Shown: piece by piece, positions 7,991 to 49,550 of the stretch | Layout of the letters: each line of letters opens with the position of its first letter | Position numbering within the stretch: the stretch's first letter is position 1 | IMG/VR virus record: IMGVR_UViG_3300042991_000196 | Location: 1-59,494 of that record | Reading direction: 5' to 3' (one strand) | Origin: a virus | Taxonomy: Duplodnaviria > Caudoviricetes | Length of the DNA stretch: 59,494 bases | The notes under the pieces: generated by a model | Seen by the model: the letters and a program-made list of their open reading frames with translations, nothing else | Databases searched by the model: none | Told to the model about the DNA's origin: nothing | Position numbers and translations under genes: made by a program

Positions 7991-8006
7991 TGTTCATTGG
8001 TGAACG
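7991..8006. promoter_or_regulatory. YGTTCA-N4-TGAACR palindrome copy 1
   Basis: tgttcattggtgaacg, intergenic. Confidence 0.7.
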
Positions 8007-8012
8007 GTTAAG

Positions 8013-8477
8013 TTATTCAACATGAACTGGTGCCTTTTTTGCCATAGATGACAGGATTGCTTCTCGTTGTTCAGGGGATAGATTTGCAAGCATTTTTATG
8101 ATTGTTTCCTTGTTGGTTGATTGTTTGGTTGATGGAGTTGATGGTTTCTTGGTGGCTTGTTTTGCCTGGAGTTGCTGGAGTTGTAGCATTTCATGGACAA
8201 TTATGTGTTCTTGATAATCGAGTGCCTGGTATGATTTGCTGGCGGTTTCCCATTGAAGTTGAATTGCTTTGTAATGGGAAGTTATTTCGTCGAGTTGATT
8301 TTTGATGATGGTTAGTTGTGGATACTGGGCTGTTTTTAATTCTTGGCTTTGTTTTTTAATGCATGTGAGACATTTTTGTTGATAATCAAAGGACTGTATT
8401 TTGGGAATTTTCGAGATGATGTAGTTTGTTAAGTTTTGGTCATATTGCTGGTTGCAGAGTGGGCAAGTTTCTGGCAT
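8013..8477 (-). CDS. Zn-finger/coiled-coil protein with C-terminal LANLSPEQ motif
   Basis: CPLC..CLTC, coiled coil, shared start motif. Confidence 0.7.
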   Translation of the reverse strand: MPETCPLCNQQYDQNLTNYIISKIPKIQSFDYQQKCLTCIKKQSQELKTAQYPQLTIIKNQLDEITSHYKAIQLQWETASKSYQALDYQEHIIVHEMLQLQQLQAKQATKKPSTPSTKQSTNKETIIKMLANLSPEQREAILSSMAKKAPVHVE

Positions 8478-8508
8478 GGTTGGCTCCTTTTTGATGGTTG
8501 AGGTTTAT

Positions 8509-8577
8509 TAACTAATAAATCAAAAGAATCATTGATGAGTGGCTGATAGGTCAATGATTCTTTTAGTTTATTAGTTA
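8509..8577. other. 27-bp intergenic stem-loop (25/27 complementary)
   Basis: taactaataaatcaaaagaatcattga / tcaatgattcttttagtttattagtta. Confidence 0.8.
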
Positions 8578-8587
8578 TGGGAAGTTA

Positions 8588-8773
8588 TTAAAGCAAGTCC
8601 ATTAGGTAGTCTGGTTCAAGGCCAAAGAACTCTTCACAGATATTGTGTGCTGCCTCTTGATCGTCTGCTTCAAGATATGCGTGAAGGGCTTCACGAGCTT
8701 CGGCTATTAAGTCATCTGCTTCAGTTGAAGTGAGGTCGTCCCGGCGCATGATGGTTTGTTTGAGTGACTGCAT
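8588..8773 (-). CDS. Small acidic helical phage protein (FGLEPDY motif)
   Basis: Shared start motif; D/E-rich. Confidence 0.75.
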   Translation of the reverse strand: MQSLKQTIMRRDDLTSTEADDLIAEAREALHAYLEADDQEAAHNICEEFFGLEPDYLMDLL

Positions 8774-8783
8774 GATTGGCTCC

Positions 8784-9044
8784 TTAGAGGTTTGAGATTA
8801 TGCCTGTGAGGGCGTACAGTATGGGGATGATGATGAAAATGACGATGCCTGAATAGATGTGTTTCATGTGGTTAGGTTCGTTGATGGTTGATGGTTTGGG
8901 CTTCCAGATTGAGCTGATGGTTAGGTGCTTGTGGGTTTTGGCACATTGGTGGCAGCAATTGATGAGGTTTAGGTTTCGATCATCTAAACGTTCGTTTCGA
9001 TATGTGCTATTTGTTGGCTTGTGACAATAATGGCAAGTTGGCAT
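8784..9044 (-). CDS. Zn-finger protein with C-terminal TM helix
   Basis: CHYC..CHQC and IYSGIVIFIIIPILYALTGII. Confidence 0.65.
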   Translation of the reverse strand: MPTCHYCHKPTNSTYRNERLDDRNLNLINCCHQCAKTHKHLTISSIWKPKPSTINEPNHMKHIYSGIVIFIIIPILYALTGIISNL

Positions 9045-9158
9045 GGTTGGCTTCTTTTGGTTGAGTTTTGAATTGTTGTAGTATTTTGATGAGTAAATTC
9101 ATTTTGATGAATAATAAGTTCATTTCAGTTATAATTTCTTCAGTGTTTCGTGTTTGTT

Positions 9159-9374
9159 TCATTTTTGGTTGGCTCCTTTTGATGCTCGGTCAAGGATTTG
9201 TCTGATAGATTGGTCTGAATGAAATTGGATGAGTGCATTTAGTCGCAGATTCCAGTCTTTCGTAGGTTCGTTCCATTGACTCATTCTGAGTCTATGATTA
9301 AATTCTGAATAAGATTTGATTTTTGATATTTCTTGTTTTTGTTTGCGATAGTTATAAAGTTGGTTTGGTGTCAT
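9159..9374 (-). CDS. Hypothetical protein (start revised to MTPNQL)
   Basis: RBS AAGGAACCATCATG, as for ORF 7260; the longer ORF-track start overlaps the promoter. Confidence 0.6.
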   Translation of the reverse strand: MTPNQLYNYRKQKQEISKIKSYSEFNHRLRMSQWNEPTKDWNLRLNALIQFHSDQSIRQILDRASKGANQK

Positions 9375-9493
9375 GATGGTTCCTTTGCCGGATTTCCGGC
9401 CTTGGGGGTGATTGCCCTTATTGGGCGGTGCATGGTGGCCCTTATATATAGTGGGCCGGTTTGTGCGTGACGTGTAAAAACGGGTCATGATGA

Positions 9494-9522
9494 ACGGTAT
9501 CATAATGATTATGGGATGTCAA
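9494..9522 (-). promoter_or_regulatory. sigma70-type promoter with extended -10
   Basis: TTGACA-17 nt-TACCGT with TGn just upstream of -10. Confidence 0.65.
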
Positions 9523-9777
9523 GGGAAAAAGAAGGAAAAAATGGTGGTAAATGGTATTTTTAGTGTGCGGCCAGGAATGGTGCTGAATGACCCGTGACGG
9601 GTTTGTGGTGTTTTTGTGGCGGATGGTACGGAAATGGTATGGAAAGGGTGTGGCGGGGCGGTTTTGTGTGTTTTTTGGCCTATGCCGCCCGCCTTGAATT
9701 GTTTGTGATGCTGTTTTACTCAAGGCGAGCGGGTTTAACTGGTTTAGCTGGTTGACTGATTGATTGGCTTAGACTGG

Positions 9778-10323
9778 TTAGTCAAGGTTTTTCCATTCGG
9801 GTGGCGGGCTGAAGTCTGTTACGGATGATATTACTGACTCGGTTATATTTGGGTCATGGAAGGCTGAGGGTTTGACCCGGTTGAAGGTAGCGTTTATTTG
9901 AGTGTTCAAGCGAGTTTCTTGGGCTGCTTGGGTTGCTTGGGCTGATTCTTGTCTGCATTGATTGAAGAATCTTTCTTGTTCAAATTCGAGGGTAATTTGC
10001 TCGGTTGTTTTTTGTACTTGTTTTTGCATTTGTGCTGATTGTGATGGTTGATAGGTTGTTTTAGCCATAGCTGCTTGGATGGTAGTGTATGGGTCTATTT
10101 GATTTGCAGGTAATTTTTCTATTAGCTTGATAGCATCAATATCTGCTTGAGAAGTGTCTAATGAGGTATTGATTGAATGCTTTGATATCCAGTCAATGAT
10201 AATAAGTTTAGCTGCTTGGGATAATGATGAAATTGGTTGATTTGGTTCGAGAGTTATGAGGATGCGTAATGCGCGAGCTAATTGGTAATGGTTTAATCTG
10301 AAAGACATGTGTGCGCTTGACAT
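9778..10323 (-). CDS. Putative ribbon-helix-helix protein with Gln-rich tail (start revised)
   Basis: MSSAHMSFRLNHYQLARALRILITLEP; GGAG RBS before 10323. Confidence 0.65.
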   Translation of the reverse strand: MSSAHMSFRLNHYQLARALRILITLEPNQPISSLSQAAKLIIIDWISKHSINTSLDTSQADIDAIKLIEKLPANQIDPYTTIQAAMAKTTYQPSQSAQMQKQVQKTTEQITLEFEQERFFNQCRQESAQATQAAQETRLNTQINATFNRVKPSAFHDPNITESVISSVTDFSPPPEWKNLD

Positions 10324-10345
10324 AGTAATGCTCCATTGATGAGGG

Positions 10346-10648
10346 TTAATCTTTAAGTGTAAATAGTTTTTGTTTGATTTGTGGTAATGGGTCGAGTTGT
10401 TTGTTTTGGTTGAGATTTGCACGGGCATGGGAAATTTCTTGAAGTAATTCTGGATTAATGTTATATGGATCGATGTTATGTTGAGTGTTGTTAAAGTGTT
10501 CTGATTTTGCTATATAATCATTAAAAATAGTCCTAATTAAATCTGCTGGCGTTGTTAGTTGCCAGGTTGGGTCAAGTGTGCGAATTGCTCGCAGACCACG
10601 GGCAAGATGATAGTCGGAAATGCGAAAACTAACGGTTGGGCTTGACAT
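10346..10648 (-). CDS. Putative ribbon-helix-helix protein (paralogue family)
   Basis: MSSPTVSFRISDYHLARGLRAIRTLDP..ADLIRTIF. Confidence 0.65.
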   Translation of the reverse strand: MSSPTVSFRISDYHLARGLRAIRTLDPTWQLTTPADLIRTIFNDYIAKSEHFNNTQHNIDPYNINPELLQEISHARANLNQNKQLDPLPQIKQKLFTLKD

Positions 10649-10789
10649 GGTGATGGCTCCTTAATGAGGGTTGAGGTTAGTTGAGGTTGAGAGGATGAAA
10701 TTGCTGGATGGGTTTAGGATGGTGATGGCCTCCTGATGAGTGGGTTGATGGTTAATGAAACAGGTTAATGGTAAAGTTAAGGTTAAAGG

Positions 10790-11372
10790 TTTGTGGCTGA
10801 TTTGTGTGTGATTTGTGGATGATATGTGGCCATTTTAGCATGTTTGTAGCCGTTTGTCCACGGTTTTTGTGTGTGCGTTTGTGTGTGATTTGTGGCCGGT
10901 TGTGGCCGGTTGTGTGCGGGTTGTGCGTGTACAGTTGGCACCGGTTGTGGTTGATTGTGTGCGTTTTGTGTGTGATTTTTGGAGGGTTCGCGTGCGTAAG
11001 TGGTTGATTTTAGGGGGGAAAATCTGTTTGTGTGGCCGATTGTGTGCGTTTTGTGTCCATTTGTACACACCCCCCCCCTCCTGACACTAAAAGTTAGGGT
11101 ATCAAAAAAAAATTTTAAGAGACTAAGAACCTACCCCCCCCCTAACAGCTTTGAAGGGGGGGGAGTGTACATTTGGACACATATCACACACAAACGACCA
11201 TCCAATATCCATAAAGCATTGAAATCATTACCTTTTATTCGTGAATTTTGTGTGCGTTTGTCACACATTCGGACACATATCACATACAAATGGTGCCAAG
11301 CGTACACGCATAAAAGTGTTTTTTGTGTGTGCGTTTGTGTGCGTTTGTGGGTTGTTTGTGTGTGATTTGTAG
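10790..11372. repeat. GT-rich iteron-like array around an imperfect inverted repeat with poly-C/poly-G tracts (candidate origin or end signal)
   Basis: About a dozen TTGTGTG(C/T)G(T/A)TT-like units; tgtgtccatttgtacacaC9 mirrored by G8agtgtacatttggacaca. Confidence 0.75.
10997..11009 (-). promoter_or_regulatory. IHF-consensus site
   Basis: AATCAACCACTTA matches WATCAANNNNTTR; 13-bp shared with 50604-50616. Confidence 0.55.
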
Positions 11373-11686
11373 CTATTTATGGCCATTTGTTCATGGAAAA
11401 ATGGTTTTAGACGTACAGATTTAATTTTATTATACGTCAACATACCTTTTTTTAGTGTCCATAGGCTAAAAAGCCATAAAAAGCCCGTCACGGCATGAAC
11501 GCCTTCAAGCATGCGCTGATAGCACCATAAAGGTGAAAATAGCGTGGCAGTGCCTTTATGGCCGTTTTTAAGGGTATTCAGGATGAACGGGACGGGGTGG
11601 ACAAACAAAGGGCCGGTCAACCAGGACGGTCAACCAGGGCGGTTTAATAGTTTAATCACTTAAAACTATTCAAGGCGCTTAAACGT

Positions 11687-11723
11687 AAAAAGCCCGATAC
11701 AGTTATTTCTAACCATATCGGGC
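11687..11723 (-). terminator. Intrinsic terminator after ORF 11749-12183
   Basis: gcccgata/tatcgggc stem followed by T5 on minus strand. Confidence 0.75.
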
Positions 11724-11748
11724 AAAATTAAGGTTGTACTTGAAGTTT

Positions 11749-12183
11749 TTAGCTGAAACGAGCGATTAACTCGGATATTTCTTCAGGTGATAAGGCACTT
11801 AGGGCATTGGTCGCCTTTTCTGCTGGCGTGAGCGCTCCCACAGGTTTTGTTGAAGTAGTCCACTTGCGATTATCAACACTGTTTTGGCCAATCTCAGGTG
11901 ACCATGTTCCCTTGACCATGCGTTTGAATGTTGCACGGTCGGAAATCAGCCAATCGTTAATACCTGCTTGCAATAAAGACAGCAAGCAATCATGCTCCTG
12001 AGCCCAAGCAAGGAATTGCTCCTCATCGTCGAAGATCGATGATGTTGGATAGTGTTCTCGCGGCAGAGTATGGGCGACATTGCCCCTATCTTGACGAAGA
12101 ATTACTCCTTTCTTGTCTACCATGAATGGTACAGAAGTTTCGGTTTTCAGCGTGTCGAGAGTAATGTAAATGGATTGGGACAT
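11749..12183 (-). CDS. Hypothetical early protein, probable distant paralogue of 2618-2983
   Basis: Own promoter and terminator; shared IS.RA..R, W and EKA..AL..L.PE motifs. Confidence 0.75.
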   Translation of the reverse strand: MSQSIYITLDTLKTETSVPFMVDKKGVILRQDRGNVAHTLPREHYPTSSIFDDEEQFLAWAQEHDCLLSLLQAGINDWLISDRATFKRMVKGTWSPEIGQNSVDNRKWTTSTKPVGALTPAEKATNALSALSPEEISELIARFS

Positions 12184-12251
12184 GGTAAATTTCCTTATAA
12201 AGAAAAAAAATGTTGAGCGACTCGAAAACGATTTTCAAGTCTAATGTGAGT

Positions 12252-12280
12252 AGTTTAATAACTTGCTCAGGTTATGTCAA
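12252..12280 (-). promoter_or_regulatory. sigma70 early promoter
   Basis: TTGACA-17-TAAACT. Confidence 0.75.
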
Positions 12281-12282
12281 GT

Positions 12283-12462
12283 TTAATCTGGTTCAATTAT
12301 GTAGGCGCATCTACCACCACACTTGCATACGATGCAATCACCTATCTGCCAGTTTTCAGGCAGAGACTCCATAAATTCTCTGCCACAATCGTAACAGGTT
12401 ACATCTGATCCTACGTTATCGCCAGATTCAAAAACTACAAATTGTTGAGTTGTTTTGATCAT
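12283..12462 (-). CDS. 59-aa Zn-ribbon protein, first gene of early arm (not in ORF track)
   Basis: MIKTTQQFVVFESGDNVGSDVTCYDCGREF..CIVCKCGGRC; AAGGAG RBS. Confidence 0.75.
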   Translation of the reverse strand: MIKTTQQFVVFESGDNVGSDVTCYDCGREFMESLPENWQIGDCIVCKCGGRCAYIIEPD

Positions 12463-12513
12463 GATAAATCTCCTTCAAGGTTAAGGTTATTCTTTAACTA
12501 CTGGCCTGACTTC

Positions 12514-12742
12514 ACTTTACTAACTGCTTTGATACTTGTCAAGAAGAAAATTGATTACAGTTTCAGCCCTCCGGGTTGGTTATCTGATTACAGTTTTCTT
12601 CCTGATAATTCTAATATACTGTCTTGTTTATTTTCTGTCAAGTTTTATTTTGAGATAGTTTTTAATCAATTAAAGTGTGTCGATTGATTATAGTTTTCTC
12701 TTTGATTGTTTATATATTAGTAAACTGTTTTTGTTTTGTCAA
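12514..12742 (-). promoter_or_regulatory. Three tandem sigma70 early promoters at ~100-bp period
   Basis: TTGACA-17-TAAAGT (12514-12542), TTGACA-17-TATATT (12613-12641), TTGACA-17-TAATAT (12714-12742). Confidence 0.8.
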
Positions 12743-12998
12743 GTTTTATTTTTGCTCCAGTTTTATGGTTGATTATTGTTGATTGATTTTTTCCAGTTGT
12801 TTTGGTGGTCAGGTGTTTTGTTTTGCCCTGGTTTTGTGCGGATGCTCACTGCCTGGGAACAATTTTCTTTTGTGCGGAACTGCCTTCAGGGCGATGCCTC
12901 GGTTTGCGCGTGTCAGATAAGGCTTTTCCCTACAGTTTGCGAATTTTTTACTGGAATAAATGCCGTCATTTGGTGGCAAAAAGAGTAAAAAATTTCCC

Positions 12999-13026
12999 TT
13001 GCAATCCCTCAAAAAAGTGTTATCAT
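12999..13026 (+). promoter_or_regulatory. Candidate promoter for packaging/structural arm
   Basis: TTGCAA-16-TATCAT with TGn extension. Confidence 0.5.
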
Positions 13027-13098
13027 GACATAAACATTTTTATTGTGTGAGCGGCCTGGACAAAACTAAACAAAAACCATACTCAGTCAGACTAAACC

Positions 13099-13782
13099 AT
13101 GCTCAAAGAACTTCGCACCCAGCATCGAACCATCATTCAGATGGCTTTTAATGGCTATCGCAACAAAGACATCGCCGAGCGCATGGAAATGAGCGACTGC
13201 ACAGTCTCCCAGATCATTCGCTCACCTCTCGGCCAGGCATACCTCAAAGGAATGCAAGACAAGGCCCAAGAAGCTACACTGGACGTGCGTAAAAAACTCA
13301 TCACATTAAATGCCAGCGCTCTCAACGTCCTTGAGCGCGTAATGAATCCAGCCGAAAAAGCACCTCACAGCGTCCAGCTCACTGCAGCAAAAGATGTTCT
13401 CGACCGATCAGGCTACAAAGCACCCGACAGACTCCATGTTGACATGACCTTACAAACCAAAACCGACCAAGAAATCGACGCTGAAATCAACGCCATGCAA
13501 CAAAGCATCGCCAAAACCTACACGCAAAGCCCGAACCAAGTTGCGACCATCACAACTCTACCACAGTCCCAGCTATCAAACCACCCGAACATAGCACAAA
13601 ATGAGTTTGATCCGTTCACCGATGAACACCAAGACGAGGGACTGGAAACTGGGCAAGCCACAGAAATTGATCCAGACTTAGCATACTTAAACGATACATT
13701 CGAATTTCCTGAAGAATCACAGTTCTCTGAAGAATCCCTACTACTAAGCAAAATACCAGCAAACATTTTTCAGTCAAATTAA
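13099..13782 (+). CDS. Putative terminase small subunit
   Basis: N-terminal HTH, AAKDVLDRSG motif, acidic tail, directly upstream of TerL. Confidence 0.7.
   Translation: MLKELRTQHRTIIQMAFNGYRNKDIAERMEMSDCTVSQIIRSPLGQAYLKGMQDKAQEATLDVRKKLITLNASALNVLERVMNPAEKAPHSVQLTAAKDVLDRSGYKAPDRLHVDMTLQTKTDQEIDAEINAMQQSIAKTYTQSPNQVATITTLPQSQLSNHPNIAQNEFDPFTDEHQDEGLETGQATEIDPDLAYLNDTFEFPEESQFSEESLLLSKIPANIFQSN
13613..13628. promoter_or_regulatory. YGTTCA-N4-TGAACR palindrome copy 2
   Basis: cgttcaccgatgaaca within terS tail. Confidence 0.7.
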
Positions 13783-13796
13783 CTCACAAGCACAAC

Positions 13797-13832
13797 AACC
13801 ATACGAATGGGGAGCGAAGCGACCCCTGATTT
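13797..13832 (+). repeat. AACCATACGAAT-[GGGGAGCGAAGCGA]-CCCCTGATTT element
   Basis: Matches 6998-7019(-) with a GCGAAGC hairpin insert; 21 bp identical at 18881-18901. Confidence 0.8.
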
Positions 13833-13852
13833 GGTCCAGGACATATAATTAA

Positions 13853-15367: not shown

Positions 15368-15377
15368 GTAACAGACA

Positions 15378-18109
<2,732 letters not shown>

Positions 18110-18124
18110 TTAGGGGAGCATGAG

Positions 18125-18367
18125 ATGATTAGTGCAGAACAGTTTGCAGAATGGAAAGAACATCCGGTAACAAAAGAAATCTTTAAAGAGATTCGGCAAT
18201 GTCGAGATGGACTGAGAGATCAATTAGCTGATGGATGTACACTTGGTGGTAGTTCACATGATACGCATGGACTAACTAATAGATTAGTTGGTCAATTAGA
18301 TGGACTTAATCAGTTATTAAGTATTTCTTATGCAGGGGCTGAGCTCGAGGAAGAAGCTGATAGTTAG
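18125..18367 (+). CDS. Conserved head-module protein
   Basis: EWKEHPVTK motif; between portal and GroES. Confidence 0.7.
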   Translation: MISAEQFAEWKEHPVTKEIFKEIRQCRDGLRDQLADGCTLGGSSHDTHGLTNRLVGQLDGLNQLLSISYAGAELEEEADS

Positions 18368-18412
18368 AGTGATAATTAAGTTGTGCTAATATTTATTTAA
18401 AAGGGTGATATT

Positions 18413-18742
18413 ATGGAAGAGATCAAAGACATTAATCAATCAGGGATAGTTCCTACTGGTGGGCACTTGTTGGTGATGCCTGATAAGGTAGAAGAACGAA
18501 CTAAGGGCGGAATTATTTTGCCTCAAGAAACACGGGATAAAGAACAAACGGCGGCAACAGTTGGGACTTTGATTGCTGTTGGTTCTGGTGCATGGGCTGA
18601 TATTGATGATGGCTCACCTTGGGCTATTGTTGGTGACAGAGTTAGTTATGCACGATATGCTGGTGTTTCGATGCTTGGGCAAGATAATGAAACTTATATA
18701 TTGATTAATGACAATGATGTTCTTGCAAAATTACTCTTTTAA
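18413..18742 (+). CDS. groES: GroES-like co-chaperonin
   Basis: EERTKGGIILP mobile loop, VGDRV.YARYAG, DVLA. Confidence 0.9.
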   Translation: MEEIKDINQSGIVPTGGHLLVMPDKVEERTKGGIILPQETRDKEQTAATVGTLIAVGSGAWADIDDGSPWAIVGDRVSYARYAGVSMLGQDNETYILINDNDVLAKLLF

Positions 18743-18754
18743 ATAGGTGTTATT

Positions 18755-19678: not shown

Positions 19679-19689
19679 ATAATGGGTGA

Positions 19690-20106: not shown

Positions 20107-20132
20107 AGTAATAATCTAAGTGGAGTTATATT

Positions 20133-21738: not shown

Positions 21739-21754
21739 CGTTCACTTTTGAACG
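21739..21754. promoter_or_regulatory. YGTTCA-N4-TGAACR palindrome copy 3
   Basis: cgttcacttttgaacg, flanked by ataatt/aattat. Confidence 0.7.
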
Positions 21755-22592: not shown

Positions 22593-22594
22593 TT

Positions 22595-30755: not shown

Positions 30756-30771
30756 TGTTCATTTATGAACG
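30756..30771. promoter_or_regulatory. YGTTCA-N4-TGAACR palindrome copy 4
   Basis: tgttcatttatgaacg, intergenic. Confidence 0.7.
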
Positions 30772-40387: not shown

Positions 40388-43300
40388 ATGGCAGGACAAT
40401 TTGATGATATTTTCGGTATTGATACTACAACTGAAAATGATACTGCTAAGACTGGTGGATCATTTGATGATCTATTTGGCGTAAATACTCAAACTGTTAC
40501 TGATGTACCATCTCGAGGTCTTGGTGGATTTCTGAAAGATACAGCTATAGATGTGACAAAAGGAGCTGTTGGTTTAGGTGAAGCAGCTGTTGGACTTGCA
40601 GATATCCCTACAGGTAATCTTGTCGGTAAAGGTTTATCATCTATCGGATATGATCCAAAGGCAACTAAAGAAATACTTGAATCAGGTTATAGTGAAGCAA
40701 GACAATTAGCAAATAAAAATGTTGCTGATGCAAGTGGATTTATTGATACAGCAAAAGCACTTGTTCAGAATCCTTCTGCTGCATTTGGTGCTGTTGTTGA
40801 ATCATCTCCTATGTCATTAGGTGGTGCTGGAATTGCTCGCAGTGTTGGTCAAAAACTACTTGGAACTGCTTTAGCTAATGCAGAAATTAAAGTAGGCACA
40901 GAAGCAGCTAAAAAGTTTGCTACCGAATTTTTCAAGCGTCCAGATGTAATGGCCAAAATTATTGGTGCTGGGGCTGCTTCTGAAGGTGCAATGACAACTG
41001 GCATTATTCAGGAGCAAGGTCGTCAAGAAGGTAAGGACTGGAGTGAGACGATTCTTCCTGCTGCTGCTGCAGGTATTGGTACAGCAGCTATAGGTGTATT
41101 ATCATCTAAAGTCCCAGGATTTAAGGATGCTGAAGCATCATTTGCTAAAGCTGGACTTGTCAGTGGTGAGCGAACAAGTTTGTTATCTGCTGGTAAAGAC
41201 ATTGCAAAGACAATGTTTAAGGAAGGTGTTTTAGAGGAAATGCCTCAATCAGGTCAAGAGCAGATATTTACAAATCTTGCGCTGGATAGACCTTGGGATG
41301 AGGGTGTTAAAGAAGCAATGGCTACAGGTATGGTAGTAGGTGCATTACAAGGCGGTGGTATGGAAACCACAAGTCAGGGTATAAATGCGCTTCAACCTCA
41401 GCCACTTACATTAGATCAAAAACTAACTAACCAGGCATCAAATATTTTTAGTCAAGGTCAAGAAAGAGTTAATGAAAATACTCAAGCATTAACTTCAATG
41501 ATAGCATCAAATGAAGCCCTCTTAAATGATCCTCAAAAGTTTGATGCTAAAGTAAAAGAATTAGATATTGAACCTGATGCGTTAATTGCTCAGCTTACTG
41601 AAGAAAATAGTTTTAATAAAAACTTATTAAATAAAATTAGCACACGTATTGCTGAACAAGCTAAGGCAAAACAAGAAGAATATAATAAATTATCTCCTGA
41701 AGAAAAAGCTGTCCGAGATGCTACTGATAGACTTAATTCACAAAGAGCAGCAAATACTAAAAAACTTGATGAACAAACTGAACAAACTAATCTTGATGAA
41801 CAAGTTAAACTTATTGATGATCAAGAAGCATTAGCTACTAAACAATATTATGCCGAGCAAGATCCAACAAAAAAGAAGCTCCTTGCTAATAATGTATTTG
41901 CACTTAGAGATCAAAGAGATAAACTTGTCAATACTTCATCTCAAGATCAACAAGCAACTTCAGATCAACAAGCAACTATTGATCAAAAATCTCTTCTTTA
42001 TAATCAGCAACAAAATGCACCAAAACTTAATTCTCCTGATAAAGCTACTCGTGAAGCAGCTCGAATTGAACAAGAAAAAATAACTGCTGAGATGACTCGA
42101 TTAGTCGATGAGTATCAGGCAGGTAATGCTAAGGGTTGGATGAATAATCCTGACAATGTATCTCAAGATGGTCAAGGATTATTATCTGAAGTACAACAAA
42201 AACAAGCATCACTTGATTATAATCAGCAAAGAAATACTCCAGTTCAGCAGCCAGTAACTCAGCAGCCAACTGGATGGGTTACTAATAAGACATCTGATGT
42301 AAATAATCGTTTTATTGGAAATGAAATAAATAAACTTTCATCTACATATGATCCTGAACCTCCTGAAAATTTAGCTGAAATTAAATCTACATCACAACAA
42401 ATTGGGAATAATGATACAAGTTCGTTCATAAATGAACAATCAGATGAACAATCAAAGCAAGTTCAAGAAGTTATTTCATTAACAAAACAATTAGCTATAA
42501 ATGAACAGCAACTTACTTCATTAGGTAATCAATTAAATAATACAACTGATTTAAATGAATTAAATATTTTACATCAAGAGATTAATGATCTTTACACACA
42601 GCAAGAAAATTTACTGCAGCAACAATTAAAAAATCAGGAAGAACAACAATTTGAAGATCAAATAACTCAACCTGAAATAAATGCAGAATCTTCAAATGTA
42701 AACTTTCAAACAACTGAAAATCAGGAAAGTTTAGGTAAAGTCAGCCTTGAAGATATTAAAAAAGCTTTTCCAAATCAAGAAATCAGTCAAGCAGCTGATG
42801 GGACTATTTCAGTTAGATTTAAGAATGGCAAAGGACTGACAATCAATAGCATTCAGAATGCTGGGCAAGGTTTTGTTAAGTTAGCTATTGAAACTGGTCA
42901 GATGTCAAAAAATGGAAAAATTCTTGGCATTACTATAAAAAATGAAATTCTTCTTGATGCAAACTTTGCTGATAATAAAACTCTATGGCATGAAAATAAG
43001 CATGTTCTTGATAATCTTGGAATAATTACTTCAGCAGATGATTCAGCATTAAATCGTGAATTTAATAAACTTCGCAAAGCAGGTAAGTTAGAATTTGCTC
43101 TTAGCACTCATGAAGATCCAGTTCAGCGAATGATTGAGAATCGTGCAAATATGTTTGCTCAAATCATGGTCAATCGAGAAGCATATCGAAATACTCCATT
43201 CGGTAAAATCATTCAACGAGTTATGGATTTCTTTCAACAATTACTTTCATTTGGTAATCAATCAATCGCAGGCTTAGCGCGCGAAGTAGAAAGCGGTAAG

Positions 43301-46300
43301 ATTTATGAGCGTCCAGTAGCTGAAAAAATCGCTGCTGAAAAAATGAAGAATCAAAATACATTTAAGAAGTGGTTTCTTGGAAGTAAAGTTGTTGATGAAA
43401 ATGGTGAACCTATAGTTGTTTATCATGGAACAAATAAGAATTTTAAATCTTTTGATACTATGTTTACAGGAGCATCATGGTTTTCTACAACACCTGAGTA
43501 TGCTAATCTTTACGCTAAAACAGATCAAGAGGGGGGAAAAATATATCCAGTTTATTTAAATATTAATAATCCTGCTGATTTAGGTTTTAGAGATTCTTCA
43601 ACATTAGTAAAAAGAAAAGATATTGAAGAACGAGTAAGACAACTGATCCTCAATGCCTTTGAAAATAAACAAACAGATAAAGAAACAGCTAAATATGCTA
43701 TTGAAATAATTAAAAGTGATGAATCACAAGATTTTATTCCTGCATGGGAATGGTTACAATATGATGCTGTTTTTATAGATGCCTTAAAGGCTGTTGGATA
43801 TGATGGACTTGCTTCAAGAGAAGGTACTAATGGTAGTGTTATAACTTACGGAGCTTTTGAACCAACACAAATAAAATCAATCTTCAATGATAATTTTGAT
43901 GGTACTGATCCGAACTTTCAAACAATTCCAATTAAAGAAGAAAATTTACCTCAAGAAATTAAAAATATTCTTAAATTACCTCAATGGAAAAAAATTAAAG
44001 ACGCAAATCAATTGTTTAGAAATAAAGAATTTTTTGATAAAACTGGCTTTTGGTATGGTAAAGATGGTTTGTGGCGCTATGAATTAAATAAAGAAGATCT
44101 TAATATTGATTTTGATAAATTATTTTCAAGTGTAAAACTTCCTGTAAATTTATCAAATGTTATGAATATTAATGCATTAAAAAATAAAGTGCCTAATATT
44201 GAACAAACAAAAATTAACCTAAATGCAGATGAGTCTTATTATAGCACTGATGAAGATATTATTTTTTTATCTCGCAATAATCCTGATATTTTTTATCATG
44301 AATTACAACATGCAATTAATCATAAATTACAAACATTTCCAGGTACAAGTATAGATTATGAAGAATCACGTATTTTAGCACCTAAAATTATAGCACGATA
44401 TAAAGAAATAAAGAAAAAACTAAGAATCTCTAAAGATAATTCAGTAGAACAATTAAATGATTTAGTAGATCAATTTGATGCGTTAATTGATACTATGGAG
44501 AATTATATAAAAAATGATACTTATTATTTACCTTATCAAGAACGTACTTATATAAATAAAGATATTGCAAATTTCTTATTTTCTATTGGACAAAATGAAG
44601 CTGCAAAAATAGCCAAATTTCCTTTTGATAGTACCTTAAAACAAGGAATTAAAAATTATTATACTAAGCCAGGAGAAATGGAGGCCAGATTAACAGAAAT
44701 ACGCATGGCAATGTCTAAAGAAGAAAAAAGATTAACTCCTCCATGGGAAACATTAGATGCAATGTTACTTAATGAAGGTTATATGTCTAAGTATGGCAAT
44801 GCATTATTTCAAGTTAGTGAAAGCACTGAGCAGAAAATTCCTCAAGCAGATTACGATGCCTTGAAGGAAACAGAGAATAATCTCCTGCAAAATTTTGCTC
44901 AACAAGCAAGAATAAAATTTCATGAAGTTAAACTTCTTGCAGATAAAGCATTTGGCGCAATATCAACAAGACTTAGAAATGTTAATCCAGAATTATCAGA
45001 ACGTATAAGACAACTTGATTTTGATACAAGTCAGAAAATCATTGCTGTACTTAAATCAGCTCAACCAATTCTTGATGCAGTTCATGGGACTAAAAATAAA
45101 CTTGGTATTCGTCAAGGTGGCATGACAGCAGGGGATAAGATCGAATGGAATTGGGCAAGACTTAATTCTGATCAAGGTAAAATTGAACAGCTTGCACGAA
45201 AATATAACATTACTAAACAACTTGCAATTTTACGTGAAAAACTAAATACTATCCGTCAAGAAGCTATCGAAGTAGGATATGATGTAGGTTTTATTGATGA
45301 ATATTGGCCACGAGTAATCAAAGATCAGGAAGGATTTCTTCAGGCAACTCAAGAAATTTCACAACGACCTGTATTTACTGAAGCAATTAGGGCACGAGCA
45401 AAGAAACTTGGAATAACTCAAGAAGCATTTGAACGTGATTTTCCTCAAGTTAAAGCAGACATCATTAGCAACTTAATTCTCAATCAATCATCAGGAATTG
45501 GCGGGCCTGGTAATATTCAATCTCGTGTATTTGAAACCATCAAAAATGAATATGCACCATTTTATATGGATGCTGATGCTGCCTTAATGCAATATGTTTA
45601 TAGCATGACTAAAAAGATTGAAGCCAGAAGATTCTTTGGTAAAGTTCCTACAAGAATCAGTAACCTGAAAACATCTAATACACAAAAACAGGCAGAACTA
45701 ATAAAACTTGCACAGCTTGCTGATATGGCTCGTGCTGAAAATCCTGAAAGACTCATAGAAATAGAAAGGCGAATCACTCAGCTACGAGAAAACATTGCTC
45801 GTAACAATCAAGACTTAGAAGCATATCAAATTACAAATGATTATACTGAGAACATTGGTTCTTACATTGATCAAATGATGCTTGATGGACGAATTGAAAA
45901 GAAAGATGAAAAGATGGTTCGTGATATTCTTGATGCAAGATTTCATGAGCAAGGTACTCATGGTGTAGTTAATGCAGCTAAAAATGCTGCTTATATTGAT
46001 GTTATGGGTAATTTTGCATCAGCAATTACTCAAATTGGTGACTTAGCTTGGGCCATGTATGTTGGTAAGGCATGGACACCAAGTAACTTTTTAGGTATTA
46101 GTAAAAATCTTCTTCAAGCAATAGCAGGTGAATCAAAGGTAACTAAAGAAGATCTTGGTATTGAACGAATTGCTCAAGAATTTGCTGATGGAACAACAAT
46201 GAGTAAAGCAGTCAGTAGAGTGTTTAAGATTGTTGGACTTGAAAAAATTGATTCGATTGGTAAAGAAGTCCTCATCAACAATGCTTTAGACCAATTCAAA

Positions 46301-47272
46301 ATTCAAGCAAATGCAAATCCAGATGCATTAGCAAAAAGAATCAGCCCAATCTTTAGAAATAAATCAGCTGATGTTGTTCAGGAGATTTTAGCAACTACGC
46401 CATCTGATAATGTTAAGCTGTTACTTTATTCCAAATTACTTGACTTTCAACCAGCTGCTCTTTCTGAAATGCCTGAGGTATATCTTAAGGCAGGAAATGG
46501 TCGAGTAGCTTACATGTTAAAAACATATACTTTGAAACAACTTGATATATTTAGACGAGAAGTTGTGCATAACCTGAAATCTAAGGATCCTCAGCAAATA
46601 GCTCAAGGATTAATAAACATGATTCAATTAGCATCATTACTTATACTTGCTAATGCTGGTGCAGATGAATTAAAAGATCTTTTGCTTGGTAAAGAAATGA
46701 AATTTTCTGACCATGTAATTGAAAATCTTTTAACTATGGGAGGTGCATCAAGACATATGAAGATGCAAGTAACACAGGATGGAATTGGTTCTGCGGCACT
46801 TCAGCAAATGCTACCACCAGTAAAATTTATCAATGCTTTAAGCAAAGATGCGCATGAAGCATATGAAGATTATGTATCTGGTGATGTAAGTAATTTCGAT
46901 CATGCAAGAATCATTGATTCGATTCCTGTTGCAGGTAAACTTTATTATTGGCACGCTGGACGAGGTGCAAAGAACAAGCAATCTATTGCTGAACAAGCAT
47001 TTAAAAAAGCAAGCATAGATGCAAGACTCTTTAAGAGACAACTTGAAAATTCTCAAGATAAAAGATTGTTCTTACAATCAAATATTGATCGACTTAAGCA
47101 ATCAAAATTACAAGAGAATTTTCAAGCTGCATTACATAAGAATAAAGCAAAAATAAATAAGTTAGAAAAATTACCCCTAACAGTAAATGTTCAAACTATG
47201 CTTGGTCAATATAAAGCACAGCGTGAACAAATTATGCAAAGCTACCTCAATGCAGCAAAAACAATCCAATAA
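40388..47272 (+). CDS. Giant ejection protein with polyvalent domains (ART-like, LPD23-like, two HExxH)
   Basis: Gly/Ala-rich N-terminus; WHENKH; FKKWF.GSKVVDENGEP.VVYHGT..GYDG..QIKS; TGFWYGKDGLWRYE..HELQH..GEMEAR. Confidence 0.8.
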   Translation: MAGQFDDIFGIDTTTENDTAKTGGSFDDLFGVNTQTVTDVPSRGLGGFLKDTAIDVTKGAVGLGEAAVGLADIPTGNLVGKGLSSIGYDPKATKEILESGYSEARQLANKNVADASGFIDTAKALVQNPSAAFGAVVESSPMSLGGAGIARSVGQKLLGTALANAEIKVGTEAAKKFATEFFKRPDVMAKIIGAGAASEGAMTTGIIQEQGRQEGKDWSETILPAAAAGIGTAAIGVLSSKVPGFKDAEASFAKAGLVSGERTSLLSAGKDIAKTMFKEGVLEEMPQSGQEQIFTNLALDRPWDEGVKEAMATGMVVGALQGGGMETTSQGINALQPQPLTLDQKLTNQASNIFSQGQERVNENTQALTSMIASNEALLNDPQKFDAKVKELDIEPDALIAQLTEENSFNKNLLNKISTRIAEQAKAKQEEYNKLSPEEKAVRDATDRLNSQRAANTKKLDEQTEQTNLDEQVKLIDDQEALATKQYYAEQDPTKKKLLANNVFALRDQRDKLVNTSSQDQQATSDQQATIDQKSLLYNQQQNAPKLNSPDKATREAARIEQEKITAEMTRLVDEYQAGNAKGWMNNPDNVSQDGQGLLSEVQQKQASLDYNQQRNTPVQQPVTQQPTGWVTNKTSDVNNRFIGNEINKLSSTYDPEPPENLAEIKSTSQQIGNNDTSSFINEQSDEQSKQVQEVISLTKQLAINEQQLTSLGNQLNNTTDLNELNILHQEINDLYTQQENLLQQQLKNQEEQQFEDQITQPEINAESSNVNFQTTENQESLGKVSLEDIKKAFPNQEISQAADGTISVRFKNGKGLTINSIQNAGQGFVKLAIETGQMSKNGKILGITIKNEILLDANFADNKTLWHENKHVLDNLGIITSADDSALNREFNKLRKAGKLEFALSTHEDPVQRMIENRANMFAQIMVNREAYRNTPFGKIIQRVMDFFQQLLSFGNQSIAGLAREVESGKIYERPVAEKIAAEKMKNQNTFKKWFLGSKVVDENGEPIVVYHGTNKNFKSFDTMFTGASWFSTTPEYANLYAKTDQEGGKIYPVYLNINNPADLGFRDSSTLVKRKDIEERVRQLILNAFENKQTDKETAKYAIEIIKSDESQDFIPAWEWLQYDAVFIDALKAVGYDGLASREGTNGSVITYGAFEPTQIKSIFNDNFDGTDPNFQTIPIKEENLPQEIKNILKLPQWKKIKDANQLFRNKEFFDKTGFWYGKDGLWRYELNKEDLNIDFDKLFSSVKLPVNLSNVMNINALKNKVPNIEQTKINLNADESYYSTDEDIIFLSRNNPDIFYHELQHAINHKLQTFPGTSIDYEESRILAPKIIARYKEIKKKLRISKDNSVEQLNDLVDQFDALIDTMENYIKNDTYYLPYQERTYINKDIANFLFSIGQNEAAKIAKFPFDSTLKQGIKNYYTKPGEMEARLTEIRMAMSKEEKRLTPPWETLDAMLLNEGYMSKYGNALFQVSESTEQKIPQADYDALKETENNLLQNFAQQARIKFHEVKLLADKAFGAISTRLRNVNPELSERIRQLDFDTSQKIIAVLKSAQPILDAVHGTKNKLGIRQGGMTAGDKIEWNWARLNSDQGKIEQLARKYNITKQLAILREKLNTIRQEAIEVGYDVGFIDEYWPRVIKDQEGFLQATQEISQRPVFTEAIRARAKKLGITQEAFERDFPQVKADIISNLILNQSSGIGGPGNIQSRVFETIKNEYAPFYMDADAALMQYVYSMTKKIEARRFFGKVPTRISNLKTSNTQKQAELIKLAQLADMARAENPERLIEIERRITQLRENIARNNQDLEAYQITNDYTENIGSYIDQMMLDGRIEKKDEKMVRDILDARFHEQGTHGVVNAAKNAAYIDVMGNFASAITQIGDLAWAMYVGKAWTPSNFLGISKNLLQAIAGESKVTKEDLGIERIAQEFADGTTMSKAVSRVFKIVGLEKIDSIGKEVLINNALDQFKIQANANPDALAKRISPIFRNKSADVVQEILATTPSDNVKLLLYSKLLDFQPAALSEMPEVYLKAGNGRVAYMLKTYTLKQLDIFRREVVHNLKSKDPQQIAQGLINMIQLASLLILANAGADELKDLLLGKEMKFSDHVIENLLTMGGASRHMKMQVTQDGIGSAALQQMLPPVKFINALSKDAHEAYEDYVSGDVSNFDHARIIDSIPVAGKLYYWHAGRGAKNKQSIAEQAFKKASIDARLFKRQLENSQDKRLFLQSNIDRLKQSKLQENFQAALHKNKAKINKLEKLPLTVNVQTMLGQYKAQREQIMQSYLNAAKTIQ
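42423..42438. promoter_or_regulatory. YGTTCA-N4-TGAACR palindrome copy 5
   Basis: cgttcataaatgaaca, exact reverse complement of copy 4. Confidence 0.7.
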
Positions 47273-47275
47273 ATA

Positions 47276-47318
47276 AAAATATGGTATAATATAGTTTCAT
47301 TATATTATACCATATTTT
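47276..47318. terminator. Perfect 18-bp AT-rich hairpin between convergent arms
   Basis: aaaatatggtataatata-gtttcat-tatattataccatatttt. Confidence 0.75.
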
Positions 47319-47329
47319 ATCTAACACTA

Positions 47330-48202
47330 TTAAAATTCTAACCAAGGCATCATGTTCATAACTCTTTGCATATCTGGATGAGCATCTTTCGCTGTGCGTA
47401 ACTTTCTTATGTGCATCCATTCATCCATGTCAGCAGTAACAATTATTTCTGTTTTAAGCGCATTTGGAAGAACTGCTCTGGCTTGTTGTGGTTTAAGCTC
47501 ATTACTTCGCAAATGCTGGTAATCAATTTCAGCTTGTTCACAGCATTGTATAAATGAGTATTTATTTACTTTTGACCAAGAATCAAAATTATCAGGTTCA
47601 ATAAATTCCATATCTTTACCAGCATAATTTACATACCTGGTAGATTCTTGTGCAAAAGAACATAGTCTATGTCGGACTAATTCATGACTAACTCCGCGAT
47701 CACAAATAAATTTAGCTGAATATCGGTGAAGTCTTTGTGGAATTTCATCATGAGGACAAACTGCCCAAACAGATCCAGGTGGGTTAAAAATATGAATATC
47801 AAATAAATCAGTATAAACTTCGCCAAACACACTGAATATTGAATCATACCAACCAATCATATTTCCTCGTTGATACCAAGCTATAAGATTTCCGCCAATA
47901 TAAATATAATCATCATCTTGAGTAATATTAAGAAATTTCCCACTCAGCGATTCTATTATAGTAATTAAGTTTGGAATATGTATCGTTGGGTATGGCATCC
48001 TAAGAACAAAATTTGAATGTTCAACCATTGCCAAATGCTTATTCTTGATTAACCTTGAGACAAACTTTTTAGCTCCATCAGGCGTAATCTTATCTTCTGA
48101 CTTATAACAAGTTCGTCCAGCTATCTCTATAAATTTAATTACTTCATCACAATCAGTTGGAACTGCCCCAAAGAACTCAACACTTGGTTTTATAATTTTC
48201 AT
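47330..48202 (-). CDS. thyX: FAD-dependent thymidylate synthase
   Basis: GRTCYKSE, EH, RGVSHELVRHR..SFAQESTRY, ARAVLPN. Confidence 0.95.
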   Translation of the reverse strand: MKIIKPSVEFFGAVPTDCDEVIKFIEIAGRTCYKSEDKITPDGAKKFVSRLIKNKHLAMVEHSNFVLRMPYPTIHIPNLITIIESLSGKFLNITQDDDYIYIGGNLIAWYQRGNMIGWYDSIFSVFGEVYTDLFDIHIFNPPGSVWAVCPHDEIPQRLHRYSAKFICDRGVSHELVRHRLCSFAQESTRYVNYAGKDMEFIEPDNFDSWSKVNKYSFIQCCEQAEIDYQHLRSNELKPQQARAVLPNALKTEIIVTADMDEWMHIRKLRTAKDAHPDMQRVMNMMPWLEF

Positions 48203-48204
48203 TG

Positions 48205-48465
48205 TTAATCTTCTTCATAGTAAATAGGGCCATCATAAGGTGCACAATTAATATAGTCTTCTTCAGCTGCAAATTCACAATGCTTTACTTCAACATAGCC
48301 ATCACCAAGTAATATTCTACCACAATTTAAACAAACATCAACATCATAATCATCATCATCAAACTCATCATCAACCTCCTCATCATAAGCATCACTATCA
48401 TCAAACTCTGGTATCATTGCATCATATCTTTCTTGTGCTACATCCATCTGTTTTTTACTAATCAT
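48205..48465 (-). CDS. Highly acidic small protein with CxxC
   Basis: D/E tract then CLNCG; AAGGAG RBS. Confidence 0.65.
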   Translation of the reverse strand: MISKKQMDVAQERYDAMIPEFDDSDAYDEEVDDEFDDDDYDVDVCLNCGRILLGDGYVEVKHCEFAAEEDYINCAPYDGPIYYEED

Positions 48466-48489
48466 AATTAAGTCTCCTTAATAAGTTTT

Positions 48490-49506
48490 TTAACCTTTTG
48501 ATTTAATATTGCAAACATATTGTTTCTTCTTACATTTAATTGGACATGGTTTAACAGGGTTAAGTTTTATTAATTCTTTTCGATAATCAAGATAAATATC
48601 ATCCCAATCTGGCACATGCATTTTTAAGTAAGCTAAAATATCTTTCCCTGATCTACTTGCACAATGTCCATGGTGGCACTTAAAACTCATATAACCATCG
48701 GCCAGAATAAATACTGTAGCTCGATTATCTGATGGATCAGTATGTTCATTAGCCCAAGGACAATTAATATCATAATGACCTTCATCAAGTATATTTTTAA
48801 TTTCTAATAATTTCCATGCAGGATGCTGTGAGGCATAATGATCTTCAAGGAAATCATAATCACCTGAGCTAAAGCTCTTGTGTGATTGACTCAAATCAAT
48901 TTCAAATGCATCAGCCAAGTCAGTGATGCTGATTTTAACTTCTGGCTGCCAAATAATCATATTGCATTTGAAAATCTTTCCAGAATTTAACTTGACCTTA
49001 CTTTTCTTAGTGTTATATCCTTCAGGCAATCGTACATATCTTGTTACGCCCAACATTCCTGAATCAATTCCATCAGGGCAAATTTTATGCACTAAACCAG
49101 TCAAAAGATTCTCTACTAATGAGCGTTCTTTACATGGGTCAACCAATATGTATCCCCATTGCTGAGAACCTGGACTTGTTTCTAATATCCAACTTGGTGC
49201 TGGTTTATCAAGCATTAAATCCAAAGGAATTTTTTCTCCAACATCATCAACTACTATGCAATGCGTTGATTTGAAAAGTTCTTTCCTTCGCCTGGCACCA
49301 TCCGCAGTTTCGTGAAATAAACTAATTGTAAAATATTGATTTGCAAATTTACGAAGTTCGCTATTCACATAATAATTTCCTAACCATGCTTGTTTGCTTT
49401 CATCAGTAAACCCTATTCCAGGATCATGGAAGAAATCAGTCACATGAGCCCAAATGAAACTTGGACCAAATATCGCCTGAAGAAATTCCTTATTAGATAT
49501 ATTCAT
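48490..49506 (-). CDS. RepB-type (AEP) DNA primase with C-terminal Zn finger
   Basis: VVDDV, PSWILETSPGSQQWGY, RYVRLP.G.N, CPW..H..CHHGHC. Confidence 0.85.
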   Translation of the reverse strand: MNISNKEFLQAIFGPSFIWAHVTDFFHDPGIGFTDESKQAWLGNYYVNSELRKFANQYFTISLFHETADGARRRKELFKSTHCIVVDDVGEKIPLDLMLDKPAPSWILETSPGSQQWGYILVDPCKERSLVENLLTGLVHKICPDGIDSGMLGVTRYVRLPEGYNTKKSKVKLNSGKIFKCNMIIWQPEVKISITDLADAFEIDLSQSHKSFSSGDYDFLEDHYASQHPAWKLLEIKNILDEGHYDINCPWANEHTDPSDNRATVFILADGYMSFKCHHGHCASRSGKDILAYLKMHVPDWDDIYLDYRKELIKLNPVKPCPIKCKKKQYVCNIKSKG

Positions 49507-49534
49507 GAAATTCTTGCTTTAGCTTTGATCTTGT

Positions 49535-49550
49535 CGTTCATTCGTGAACA
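49535..49550. promoter_or_regulatory. YGTTCA-N4-TGAACR palindrome copy 6
   Basis: cgttcattcgtgaaca, ~30 bp upstream of primase start. Confidence 0.7.

Follow-up and report, generated by a model that had tools for sequence, protein, structure and literature searches.

Dispersed 16-bp palindromes in a phage genome as candidate docking sites for a ParB-helix-turn-helix-methyltransferase

The DNA considered here is the virus record IMGVR_UViG_3300042991_000196 (Duplodnaviria; Caudoviricetes), a stretch of 59,494 bp called the window below; it is the entire IMG/VR record, rated ~90% complete. Its genes run in two directions. The leftward genes, from ~12.2 kb across the ends of the record to 47.3 kb, are early and replication genes, and the rightward ones, from ~12.4 to 47.3 kb, encode packaging, head, and tail proteins and a polyvalent protein of 2294 amino acids (aa). 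One leftward gene encodes a fusion of a ParB N-terminal domain, a helix-turn-helix (HTH), and a DNA methyltransferase. Scattered over both blocks are copies of a 16-bp palindrome, YGTTCA-N4-TGAACR (YGTTCANNNNTGAACR; Y, pyrimidine; R, purine; N, any base). What reads these palindromes? From the comparisons described here, we consider it about 60% probable that they are docking sites on double-stranded DNA, parS-like or OB-like, for the phage's own ParB-HTH-methyltransferase.

Palindromes in the window and in close relatives

An exact pattern search of the window finds the palindrome six times (Table 1), with gaps of 5,622 to 11,667 bp between copies, and bears out every position and the 5.6- to 11.7-kb spacing listed in a preliminary description of this DNA. 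That description had estimated fewer than 0.1 chance copies. In 100 dinucleotide-preserving shuffles of the window, the mean was 0.02 palindromes and the maximum 1, with none reaching 6, and the motif is enriched as had been expected. Permitting 1 mismatch in the 10 core bases adds a single site, at 30690. Gene junctions hold four of the six copies; the terS-like gene and the giant gene for the polyvalent protein contain one each. A degenerate copy had also been reported near 50683; a half-site with its flank does lie there, but the left arm is too altered for a full palindrome. The combination of half-site and flank, TGAACRNCMAGT, has 2 matches in the window against 0.10 expected, and in copy 4 the flank box to the left is complete (30750-30761). 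The missing part of the record probably holds a seventh copy, because the record ends fall between the AAA_24 and BRCT genes, where seven relatives carry a site.

A search with TerL returned 65 related loci, and relatives with TerL 78 to 92% identical were compared as whole records. The core GTTCA-N4-TGAAC occurs 6, 5, 8, 7, 6, 5, 5, and 5 times in eight of them (42 to 66 kb) and 3 times in a ninth, a 31-kb fragment; a reversed-pattern control gave 0 in every one of the nine. The palindromes of these nine related IMG/VR phages also lie at positions matching the window, terS and the giant gene included. One class stands past the head gene (8 relatives, 5 to 32 nucleotides [nt] from the stop). 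Another is in terS at ~0.7 of its length (5 relatives) or 290 to 490 nt upstream of terS (3 relatives), and a third is at ~0.3 of the giant gene in six genomes, counting the window, in a common reading frame. Further classes lie 21 to 44 nt upstream of the primase-like gene (five relatives), between the AAA_24 and BRCT genes (7 relatives, equivalent to the ends of the window record), and between the homologue of 8013-8477 and a ribbon-helix-helix (RHH)-like gene. In the window, copy 1 occupies the last of these gaps, between 8013-8477(-) and small genes upstream of the RHH-like gene 7559-7828(-), a junction that is also occupied by a palindrome in the relatives G001, G003, G004, and G007.

Pooling the window with the nine relatives gives 56 sites, or 112 half-sites. 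TGAAC is invariant in all 112, and the next outward base is a purine in 112/112. Two bases further out lies a flank box, C-(A/C)-A-(G/T)-T, and a weaker box recurs ~17 to 18 bases beyond it. The four spacer bases favor the symmetric pattern Y-W-W-R (W, A or T), and the outer Y/R pair is noncomplementary in 5 of the 6 window copies. This invariance without compensatory change, together with the symmetric spacer, argues for a symmetric protein on duplex DNA rather than an RNA stem. Oriented by transcription or by genome, the sites are modestly asymmetric in a way that depends on their class (35 right-heavy, 17 left-heavy, 4 equal). As many as 34 of the 56 lie outside open reading frames (ORFs), though ~93% of the DNA is coding.

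What about the copies that lie within genes? The palindrome in terS is found in six genomes, counting the window, in one reading frame throughout, and in both coding classes the motif is always framed xxG-TTC-ANN-NAT-GAA-Cxx. Motif bases at synonymous positions are constant while the spacer varies, and the four terS genes without the site lack the peptide as well. These constant synonymous bases and the loss of the peptide with the site indicate, from the alignments, that the sites are under selection at the DNA level, in agreement with the earlier view of the copies in terS and the giant gene as DNA-level signals.

TABLE 1 Palindromes, fusion protein, and replication genes of the window
Feature	Position	Strand	Remarks
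Palindrome copy 1	7991..8006		TGTTCA-TTGG-TGAACG; 7 nt past stop of 8013-8477(-); intergenic
Palindrome copy 2	13613..13628		Within terS-like gene 13099-13782, at 75% of gene length; read P-F-T-D-E-H
Palindrome copy 3	21739..21754		87 nt past major head gene 20732-21652; strong hairpin 21778-21805 downstream
Palindrome copy 4	30756..30771		49 nt ahead of ATG of 30820-31059
Palindrome copy 5	42423..42438		Within 2294-aa polyvalent (ADP-ribosyltransferase-domain) gene 40388-47272, at 30% of length; read S-F-I-N-E-Q
Palindrome copy 6	49535..49550		Overlaps stop of 49538-49963(-); 28 nt ahead of ATG of primase-like 48490-49506(-)
Degenerate copy	50693..50704	+	Half-site plus flank box (TGAAC-AA-CCAGT), TGAACAACCAGT; left arm with 2 mismatches
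ParB(N-domain + HTH)-linker-methyltransferase fusion, 477 aa	56121..57554	-	PF02195 + PF01555 on record; proposed reader; cassette
ParB N-terminal fold, residues 5-95	57270..57542	-	Sulfiredoxin-like, nucleoside triphosphate-binding
HTH, residues 125-151	57102..57182	-	Recognition helix starts GGLSTDL
Linker, residues 194-242	56829..56975	-	Predicted disordered; predicted local distance difference test (pLDDT) below 50
Beta-class DNA methyltransferase domain, residues 245-470	56145..56822	-	DPPY (catalytic) and FAGSG (FxGxG type, S-adenosylmethionine) motifs
PD-(D/E)XK nuclease	1019..1999	-	Cassette
DUF3987 helicase	51846..53105	-	Cassette
PolA	53169..55745	-	N-terminal uracil-DNA glycosylase (UDG)-like domain; cassette
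Second methyltransferase	57571..58137	-	
dATP/dGTP diphosphohydrolase N-domain protein	58450..58908	-	
ThyX	47330..48202	-	

The replication cassette and its ParB-HTH-methyltransferase

With which genes do the palindromes travel? The fusion belongs to a replication cassette that also comprises a PD-(D/E)XK nuclease, PolA, and a DUF3987 helicase. Genomes were compared with a blind statistic, the largest family of perfect palindromes with 5-bp arms, a spacer of 0 to 10, at least 2 G/C per arm, and copies at least 1 kb apart. For the window and its relatives, the statistic ranks GTTCA-N4 first. A family of at least 5 copies is found in 10 of 12 cassette-bearing genomes. G033 has 4, and G036 has 2 perfect copies and 8 of an imperfect form, GTTC-N7-GAAC. 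Five phages that share the portal, head, and neighboring genes with the window (head protein 55 to 64% identical) have top families of 2 to 4 copies, as in shuffles, and these head-gene-only relatives have no match to the ParB-methyltransferase, PolA, or DUF3987 helicase. Six TerL-distant phages yielded no dispersed palindrome family by this statistic; in these genomes (G010-G015) motif, fusion, and RHH-like gene are all missing, so that they do not separate the hypotheses.

The palindromes of other cassette lineages have sequences of their own. TAACAA-W-TTGTTA has 8 copies each in R24, G025, and G035 (8/8 intergenic in R24), and TCCCAA-W-TTGGGA has 8 in G030 and 10 in G031 (both by pattern search) and 6 in Desulfofustis phage LS06-2018-MD01, a cultured-collection record that has the cassette in common with the window and not the head genes. 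Other cassette-bearing genomes carry GTGTA-N9-TACAC (5 and 4 copies in two genomes), GGTTAA-N3-TTAACC (12 copies), and GTTCAA-N3-TTGAAC (7 copies). Nine cassette genomes have 66 sites in all, 52 of them outside ORFs of at least 60 aa (5.9 expected), and five of these genomes space their sites more evenly than random placement would (P ≤ 0.01). In R24, an A+T-rich box resembling TAT-N-AT lies 8 to 11 nt to the same side of each palindrome, 8/8 in one orientation, whatever direction the neighboring genes take. On this comparison of genomes, the sites travel with the replication cassette and not with the head genes. The co-occurrence of motif and ParB-methyltransferase that the preliminary description had proposed as a check is thus seen in related phages, dispersed palindromes accompanying the cassette in all the lineages examined and being absent from the five relatives without the fusion. 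Two loci with a fusion 58% identical (L132 and L133) have no palindrome copy, though these 9- to 12-kb fragments are too short to weigh. Close cultured relatives are a separate matter: when 9 kb from the late region were compared by megablast with 50,697 phage records, there was no match.

The window's 477-aa protein can be divided, on profile and model evidence, into a ParB N-domain, an HTH domain directly after it, a linker, and the methyltransferase. PHROG “ParB-like” families match residues 1 to 236, and the match to PF01555, the family of beta-class N6-adenine/N4-cytosine DNA methyltransferases, has an expectation value (E) of 4e-17. A profile of 17 homologues searched against solved structures finds ParB, Noc, and Spo0J at E 1e-15 to 2e-11 (ParB 4umk at E 1.2e-15), with hidden Markov model alignments to ParB that extend to residue 118 to 144. 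Pfam ParB_N matches 11 of the 17 homologues and does not match the window protein itself at E 1, though PF02195 is on record for it. A model of residues 1 to 200 (pLDDT 80) aligns with C-terminally truncated Noc, ParB, KorB, and Spo0J structures over ~180 to 225 columns (E 7e-7 to 3e-5), the Foldseek matches including the KorB chains 8qa9_B and 8qa8_C, and helices 125-132 and 136-151 are present in both structure models. The ParB-HTH architecture assigned to this gene at the outset thereby gains profile and fold matches of the ParB/Noc/KorB type. Across the 17 sequences, G54, R57, E86, N90, R93, DPP (272-274), and GSG (432-434) are invariant; in box III (canonically ENLQR), the N and R are among the residues that never vary.

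No C-terminal ParB dimerization domain is present; the methyltransferase domain stands after the linker in its place. Its fold matches are CcrM, M.RsrI, MboIIA, and DpnA, at E 6e-14 and weaker. Folding of two copies predicts a symmetric homodimer interface within this domain (residues 328 to 392), with a score of 0.67, where the highest of 3 controls scored 0.00; at least 67% of contacts recur between runs, and the partner pLDDT is at least 69. Of 30 proteins solved as one-chain pairs, 20 reach the mark used for this score, as does 1 of 23 that were solved as a single chain, counts that are rough because our own alignment was used. Dimers of related methyltransferases have already been solved, so the pass may come from likeness to them.

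If the HTH reads the palindrome, does its recognition helix change when the palindrome changes? Fusion proteins of 14 lineages were aligned. The helix starts GGLSTDL with GTTCA half-sites, SSKS-x-[VI]-[SA]-R-[DE]-L with TCCCAA, NPMNV[ST]RAL with TAACAA, and KS-x-MTVSNNL with GTGTA, and it has another, distinct sequence with GGTTAA. Pairs with the same half-site (n = 15) are on average 26 points more identical in the helix than in the remainder of the protein; for pairs with different half-sites (n = 63), this difference is -0.5. At 40 to 54% overall divergence, the helix is 62 to 92% identical in same-site pairs and 23 to 69% in different-site pairs. None of 2,000 label shuffles reached the observed value, although, because the lineages are related, the pairs are not independent trials and this is not a probability. 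The most independent contrast is the Desulfofustis protein. Its helix is closest to those of L277 (69%) and L281 (61%), which have the same palindrome, but its N-domain and methyltransferase domain have their nearest counterparts elsewhere. The alignment thus indicates that the recognition helix changes with the half-site across lineages. Together with the shared travel of sites and cassette, this comparative evidence supports the loading of the ParB-HTH-methyltransferase at the palindromes that the preliminary description had put forward.

A possible mechanism and the competing readings

How might such an enzyme use its sites? As predicted from the model, it would dimerize through the methyltransferase domain, with one HTH module of the dimer on each YGTTCA half-site. 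By analogy with the ParB family (PMC11790492), the docked N-domains would next clamp the DNA in a nucleotide-bound state, and the enzyme would leave the site. The tethered methyltransferase, presumably of the N6-adenine type, could then act in cis, marking the phage genome and not the host's. A site every 6 to 10 kb would keep the entire genome reachable and would account for the retention of copies even within a 7-kb gene. The box II arginine, the box III residues, and the roughly even 6- to 10-kb spacing are compatible with nucleotide-gated sliding and methylation in cis, but KorB-like long-range gene silencing, or methylation limited to the sites, would fit equally well. A more ambitious version of the scheme is a self-addressed sliding methyltransferase that loads only at the palindromes of its own genome as a nucleotide-gated clamp and methylates while diffusing, so that phage DNA is marked and host DNA is unmarked; the 6- to 10-kb spacing would be the range of the clamp, and the pairs of helix and half-site a recognition code. 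We regard this version as doubtful, with odds of perhaps one in a few.

Several observations weigh against the fusion as the reader of the palindromes. Box II, canonically GERRxR, reads G-A-H-R, keeping the arginine and lacking the glutamate, and canonical ParB uses that glutamate for CTP hydrolysis. Spacing can also be irregular: in G002, 25 kb separate two successive sites, and in G034 and the Desulfofustis phage the spacing is indistinguishable from random. The cassette also encodes the DUF3987 helicase, with a winged-helix-like C-terminal domain, and small proteins of the cassette could escape sequence searches. Three relatives have one copy placed like an operator, 20 to 38 nt upstream of the RHH-like gene. 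Four temperate phages with classic ParB-methyltransferases have no dispersed palindrome (top families of 2 to 3 copies), which rejects the general rule that any ParB-methyltransferase implies such sites (0/4 classic prophages) and limits the link to the HTH-bearing subfamily in this cassette. A Vibrio phage with a classic-type fusion and CRP-like palindromes, described below, means that dispersed palindromes can have other readers. Finally, the accessible part of a survey of ParB-fold proteins does not place N6_N4-methyltransferase fusions among its nucleotide binders (PMC12704722).

Of the competing readings, the best surviving is that the palindromes are operators of a small RHH-like regulator that controls several operons and its own gene. 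Three candidates exist: 7559-7828(-), its longer paralogue 9778-10428(-), and the 70-aa 58911-59123. The N-termini of all three look strand-helix-helix by eye. The operator-like copy noted above precedes the ATG of the 7559-7828 homologue in G001, G003, and G004, and in the window a copy heads the same gene block. The majority of sites are intergenic, 16 to 50 nt ahead of a start codon, and other phages do have dispersed conserved operators, such as the conserved inverted repeats of phiC31 and the stoperators of L5. However, three family profiles found no match at E ≤ 1 among all ORFs of six related contigs, including R24 with its 8 palindromes, and a homologue search returned only 3 near-identical proteins. 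Because small proteins diverge fast, this absence is weak evidence. The putative RHH fold has no Pfam, PHROG, or solved-structure match, and the inside of terS, the middle of a 7-kb gene, and the DNA directly past the head gene are odd places for an operator. The RHH alternative, which had been raised from the start, is therefore weakened by the missing homologues and the odd sites and retains the operator-like copy of three relatives; on balance we find it improbable. Of the RepL-like ligand raised with it, no sign was found among the 31 window proteins scanned with Pfam or PHROGs. As for the two paralogues themselves, they have homologues in G001-G009, and the longer RHH-like forms carry a conserved acidic tail with D-F-S-P-P-x-[DE]-W, which may be a docking peptide.

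Could the palindromes instead be loading or origin sites of the DUF3987 helicase, bound through its winged-helix-like C-terminal domain, with many replication starts per genome? The helicase is part of the same co-travelling cassette. A copy lies ~10 nt or less from the end of its gene in R24 and the Desulfofustis phage and ~60 to 260 nt from the end of the tblastn match in 5 of the 7 L275-L283 loci with a recurring palindrome. Some viral helicase-initiators use a palindrome with an A+T-rich stretch, an arrangement that the flanked R24 copies share. On the other side, the C-terminal domain evolves faster than the core and does not sort by palindrome. It is 36 to 51% identical among GTTCA lineages, against 63 to 76% for the core (68% versus 81% in the closest pair), and the Desulfofustis domain is just 18 to 21% identical to those of L277 and L281 despite the same TCCCAA palindrome. 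Moreover, the winged-helix fold was read from the alignment only, and we know of no precedent for five to twelve origins in a genome of 45 to 65 kb. The chance that this reading is right seems to us small, about one in ten.

A host DNA-binding protein, for example a dimeric regulator of the CRP/FNR type timing phage genes, is a much less probable reader. The 5-N4-5 geometry is typical of such dimers, and Vibrio phage 1.213.O (L191; MG592583.1), an unrelated 42-kb siphovirus-like genome with a ParB/sulfiredoxin-methyltransferase, has ten perfect TGTGA-N6-TCACA palindromes, all intergenic at gene junctions. Those match what we take to be the CRP consensus, and their reader could be host CRP or a phage protein. 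Yet related phage lineages of the present group have quite different palindromes that follow the helix of the phage protein, and in metagenome-assembled genome bins with related contigs the core is no more frequent than background.

Two further candidates were set aside. TerS, as the reader of pac-like sites, was suggested by the copy in terS and by an N-terminal HTH resembling sigma-70 region 4, but many packaging starts fit poorly; the head-module relatives could not separate the TerS and ParB readings because no terS match was found in them. A promoter reading was tried with a sigma-70 scan of 7000-23000, which gave 37 sites against 43.0 in shuffles, none of them tied to a palindrome bar one weak match overlapping 21739. 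The least credible reading of all, RNA hairpins acting as terminators, processing sites, or protein-binding stem-loops, has in its favor that each site is self-complementary on either strand, that the majority lie between genes, and that 21739-21754 looks terminator-like in a simple scan, and we reject it on the lack of covariation among identical half-sites, the noncomplementary outer pairs, a spacer that would close the loop to two bases, and a stem of just 5 to 6 pairs with no T run beyond a weak one at 21739.

Neighboring features, known systems, and significance

The surroundings of the palindromes hold other features of note. On the minus strand, 12250-12750 contains four tandem near-consensus sigma-70 sites (TTGACA, 17 nt, TAnnnT), ~100 bp apart and heading the leftward early genes, and the ORFs called in this stretch are probably spurious. 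The diphosphohydrolase-like protein, ThyX, the UDG-like PolA, and the second methyltransferase of Table 1 hint at an altered nucleotide pool or nonstandard bases. The UvrD-like helicase at 3750-6113(-) has a weak match to an intein-splicing domain (residues 284 to 523), under the Pfam cutoff, and the polyvalent protein at 40388-47272(+), 41 to 75% conserved in relatives, has its ADP-ribosyltransferase domain at residues 1003 to 1170. The record ends (1-228 and 59412-59494) form a break between AAA_24 and BRCT where seven relatives have ~3 kb, including one palindrome; in G004 this gap carries an unusual tRNA-like gene whose anticodon has four bases (L079 2688-2774). In R18 (G018:C331), 13 TGTTG-N8-CAACA repeats form two clusters, at ~17.48 to 17.80 and 29.87 to 30.28 kb, which look like origin-like iteron arrays, unlike the dispersed sites. 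In several distant head-module relatives (L146, L147, L152, L153, and L154), a motif like ACTG-N-CCTAGCAGAC lies 30 to 60 nt past the head-gene terminator and may be a lineage-specific promoter.

How do the protein and its candidate sites compare with known systems? The likeness to ParB-parS and Noc-NBS lies in an N-terminal ParB fold followed by an HTH, and in short palindromes with several dispersed copies. The differences are as follows. (i) The methyltransferase replaces the C-terminal dimerization domain and is the predicted dimer interface. (ii) No ParA/CbiA family member was found among the 30 window proteins scanned with Pfam (a subset of ORFs), the box II glutamate is absent, and the inner site bases differ from those of parS; the resemblance to chromosomal parS proposed earlier thus extends to the outer bases and is weak. 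(iii) The phage genome looks lytic, and neither integrase nor partition genes were found in it. Members of the ParB/Noc family are known to spread from such sites (PMC11790492).

The OB sites of RK2 offer a second comparison, in that many copies of one site of 16 bp are spread over a mobile genome, and KorB is among the fold matches of the phage protein. The plasmid itself carries many copies of one 16-bp OB operator over 60 kb. KorB pairs with KorA and IncC and has no enzyme domain, whereas the phage protein carries a methyltransferase and is not known to have a KorA-like partner. KorB is a ParB-family clamp, and some of its operators are beside promoters and some far from any (PMC11790492). 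Among phages, the comparison is with the conserved inverted repeats of phiC31, the L5 stoperators, and the dispersed centromere sites of N15. In all three, a conserved short site recurs at intergenic places. Each of those systems comes from a temperate phage or a plasmid-prophage, in which a repressor or a partition protein does the reading. The present genome yielded no lysogeny or partition module, and its candidate reader is a fusion enzyme.

The PF02195 and PF01555 domain pair is reported in PMC12704722 to be frequent in phages and of open function. The phage ParB-CTPase-fold/N6_N4 fusions treated there have the same domain pair as the present protein, which belongs to a subfamily with an HTH and a candidate cognate site. 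In PMC13229309, the idea that ParB homologues direct DNA-modifying enzymes to loci is described as unconfirmed, and the ParBs associated with thymine dioxygenases are without a DNA-binding domain. No published DNA target of a phage ParB-methyltransferase fusion was found by full-text searches of papers outside subscription journals and supplements.

Overall, if the docking reading is true, the palindromes would be the first predicted DNA targets for a common and unexplained class of phage proteins. For one subfamily, the comparison supplies candidate sites, natural pairs of protein and site (of the GTTCA, TAACAA, TCCCAA, GTGTA, and GGTTAA types), and a short helix that apparently sets specificity, which together make the docking question directly testable. 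And if loading in cis is also true, the virus would tell its own DNA from that of its host by address, not by chemistry.

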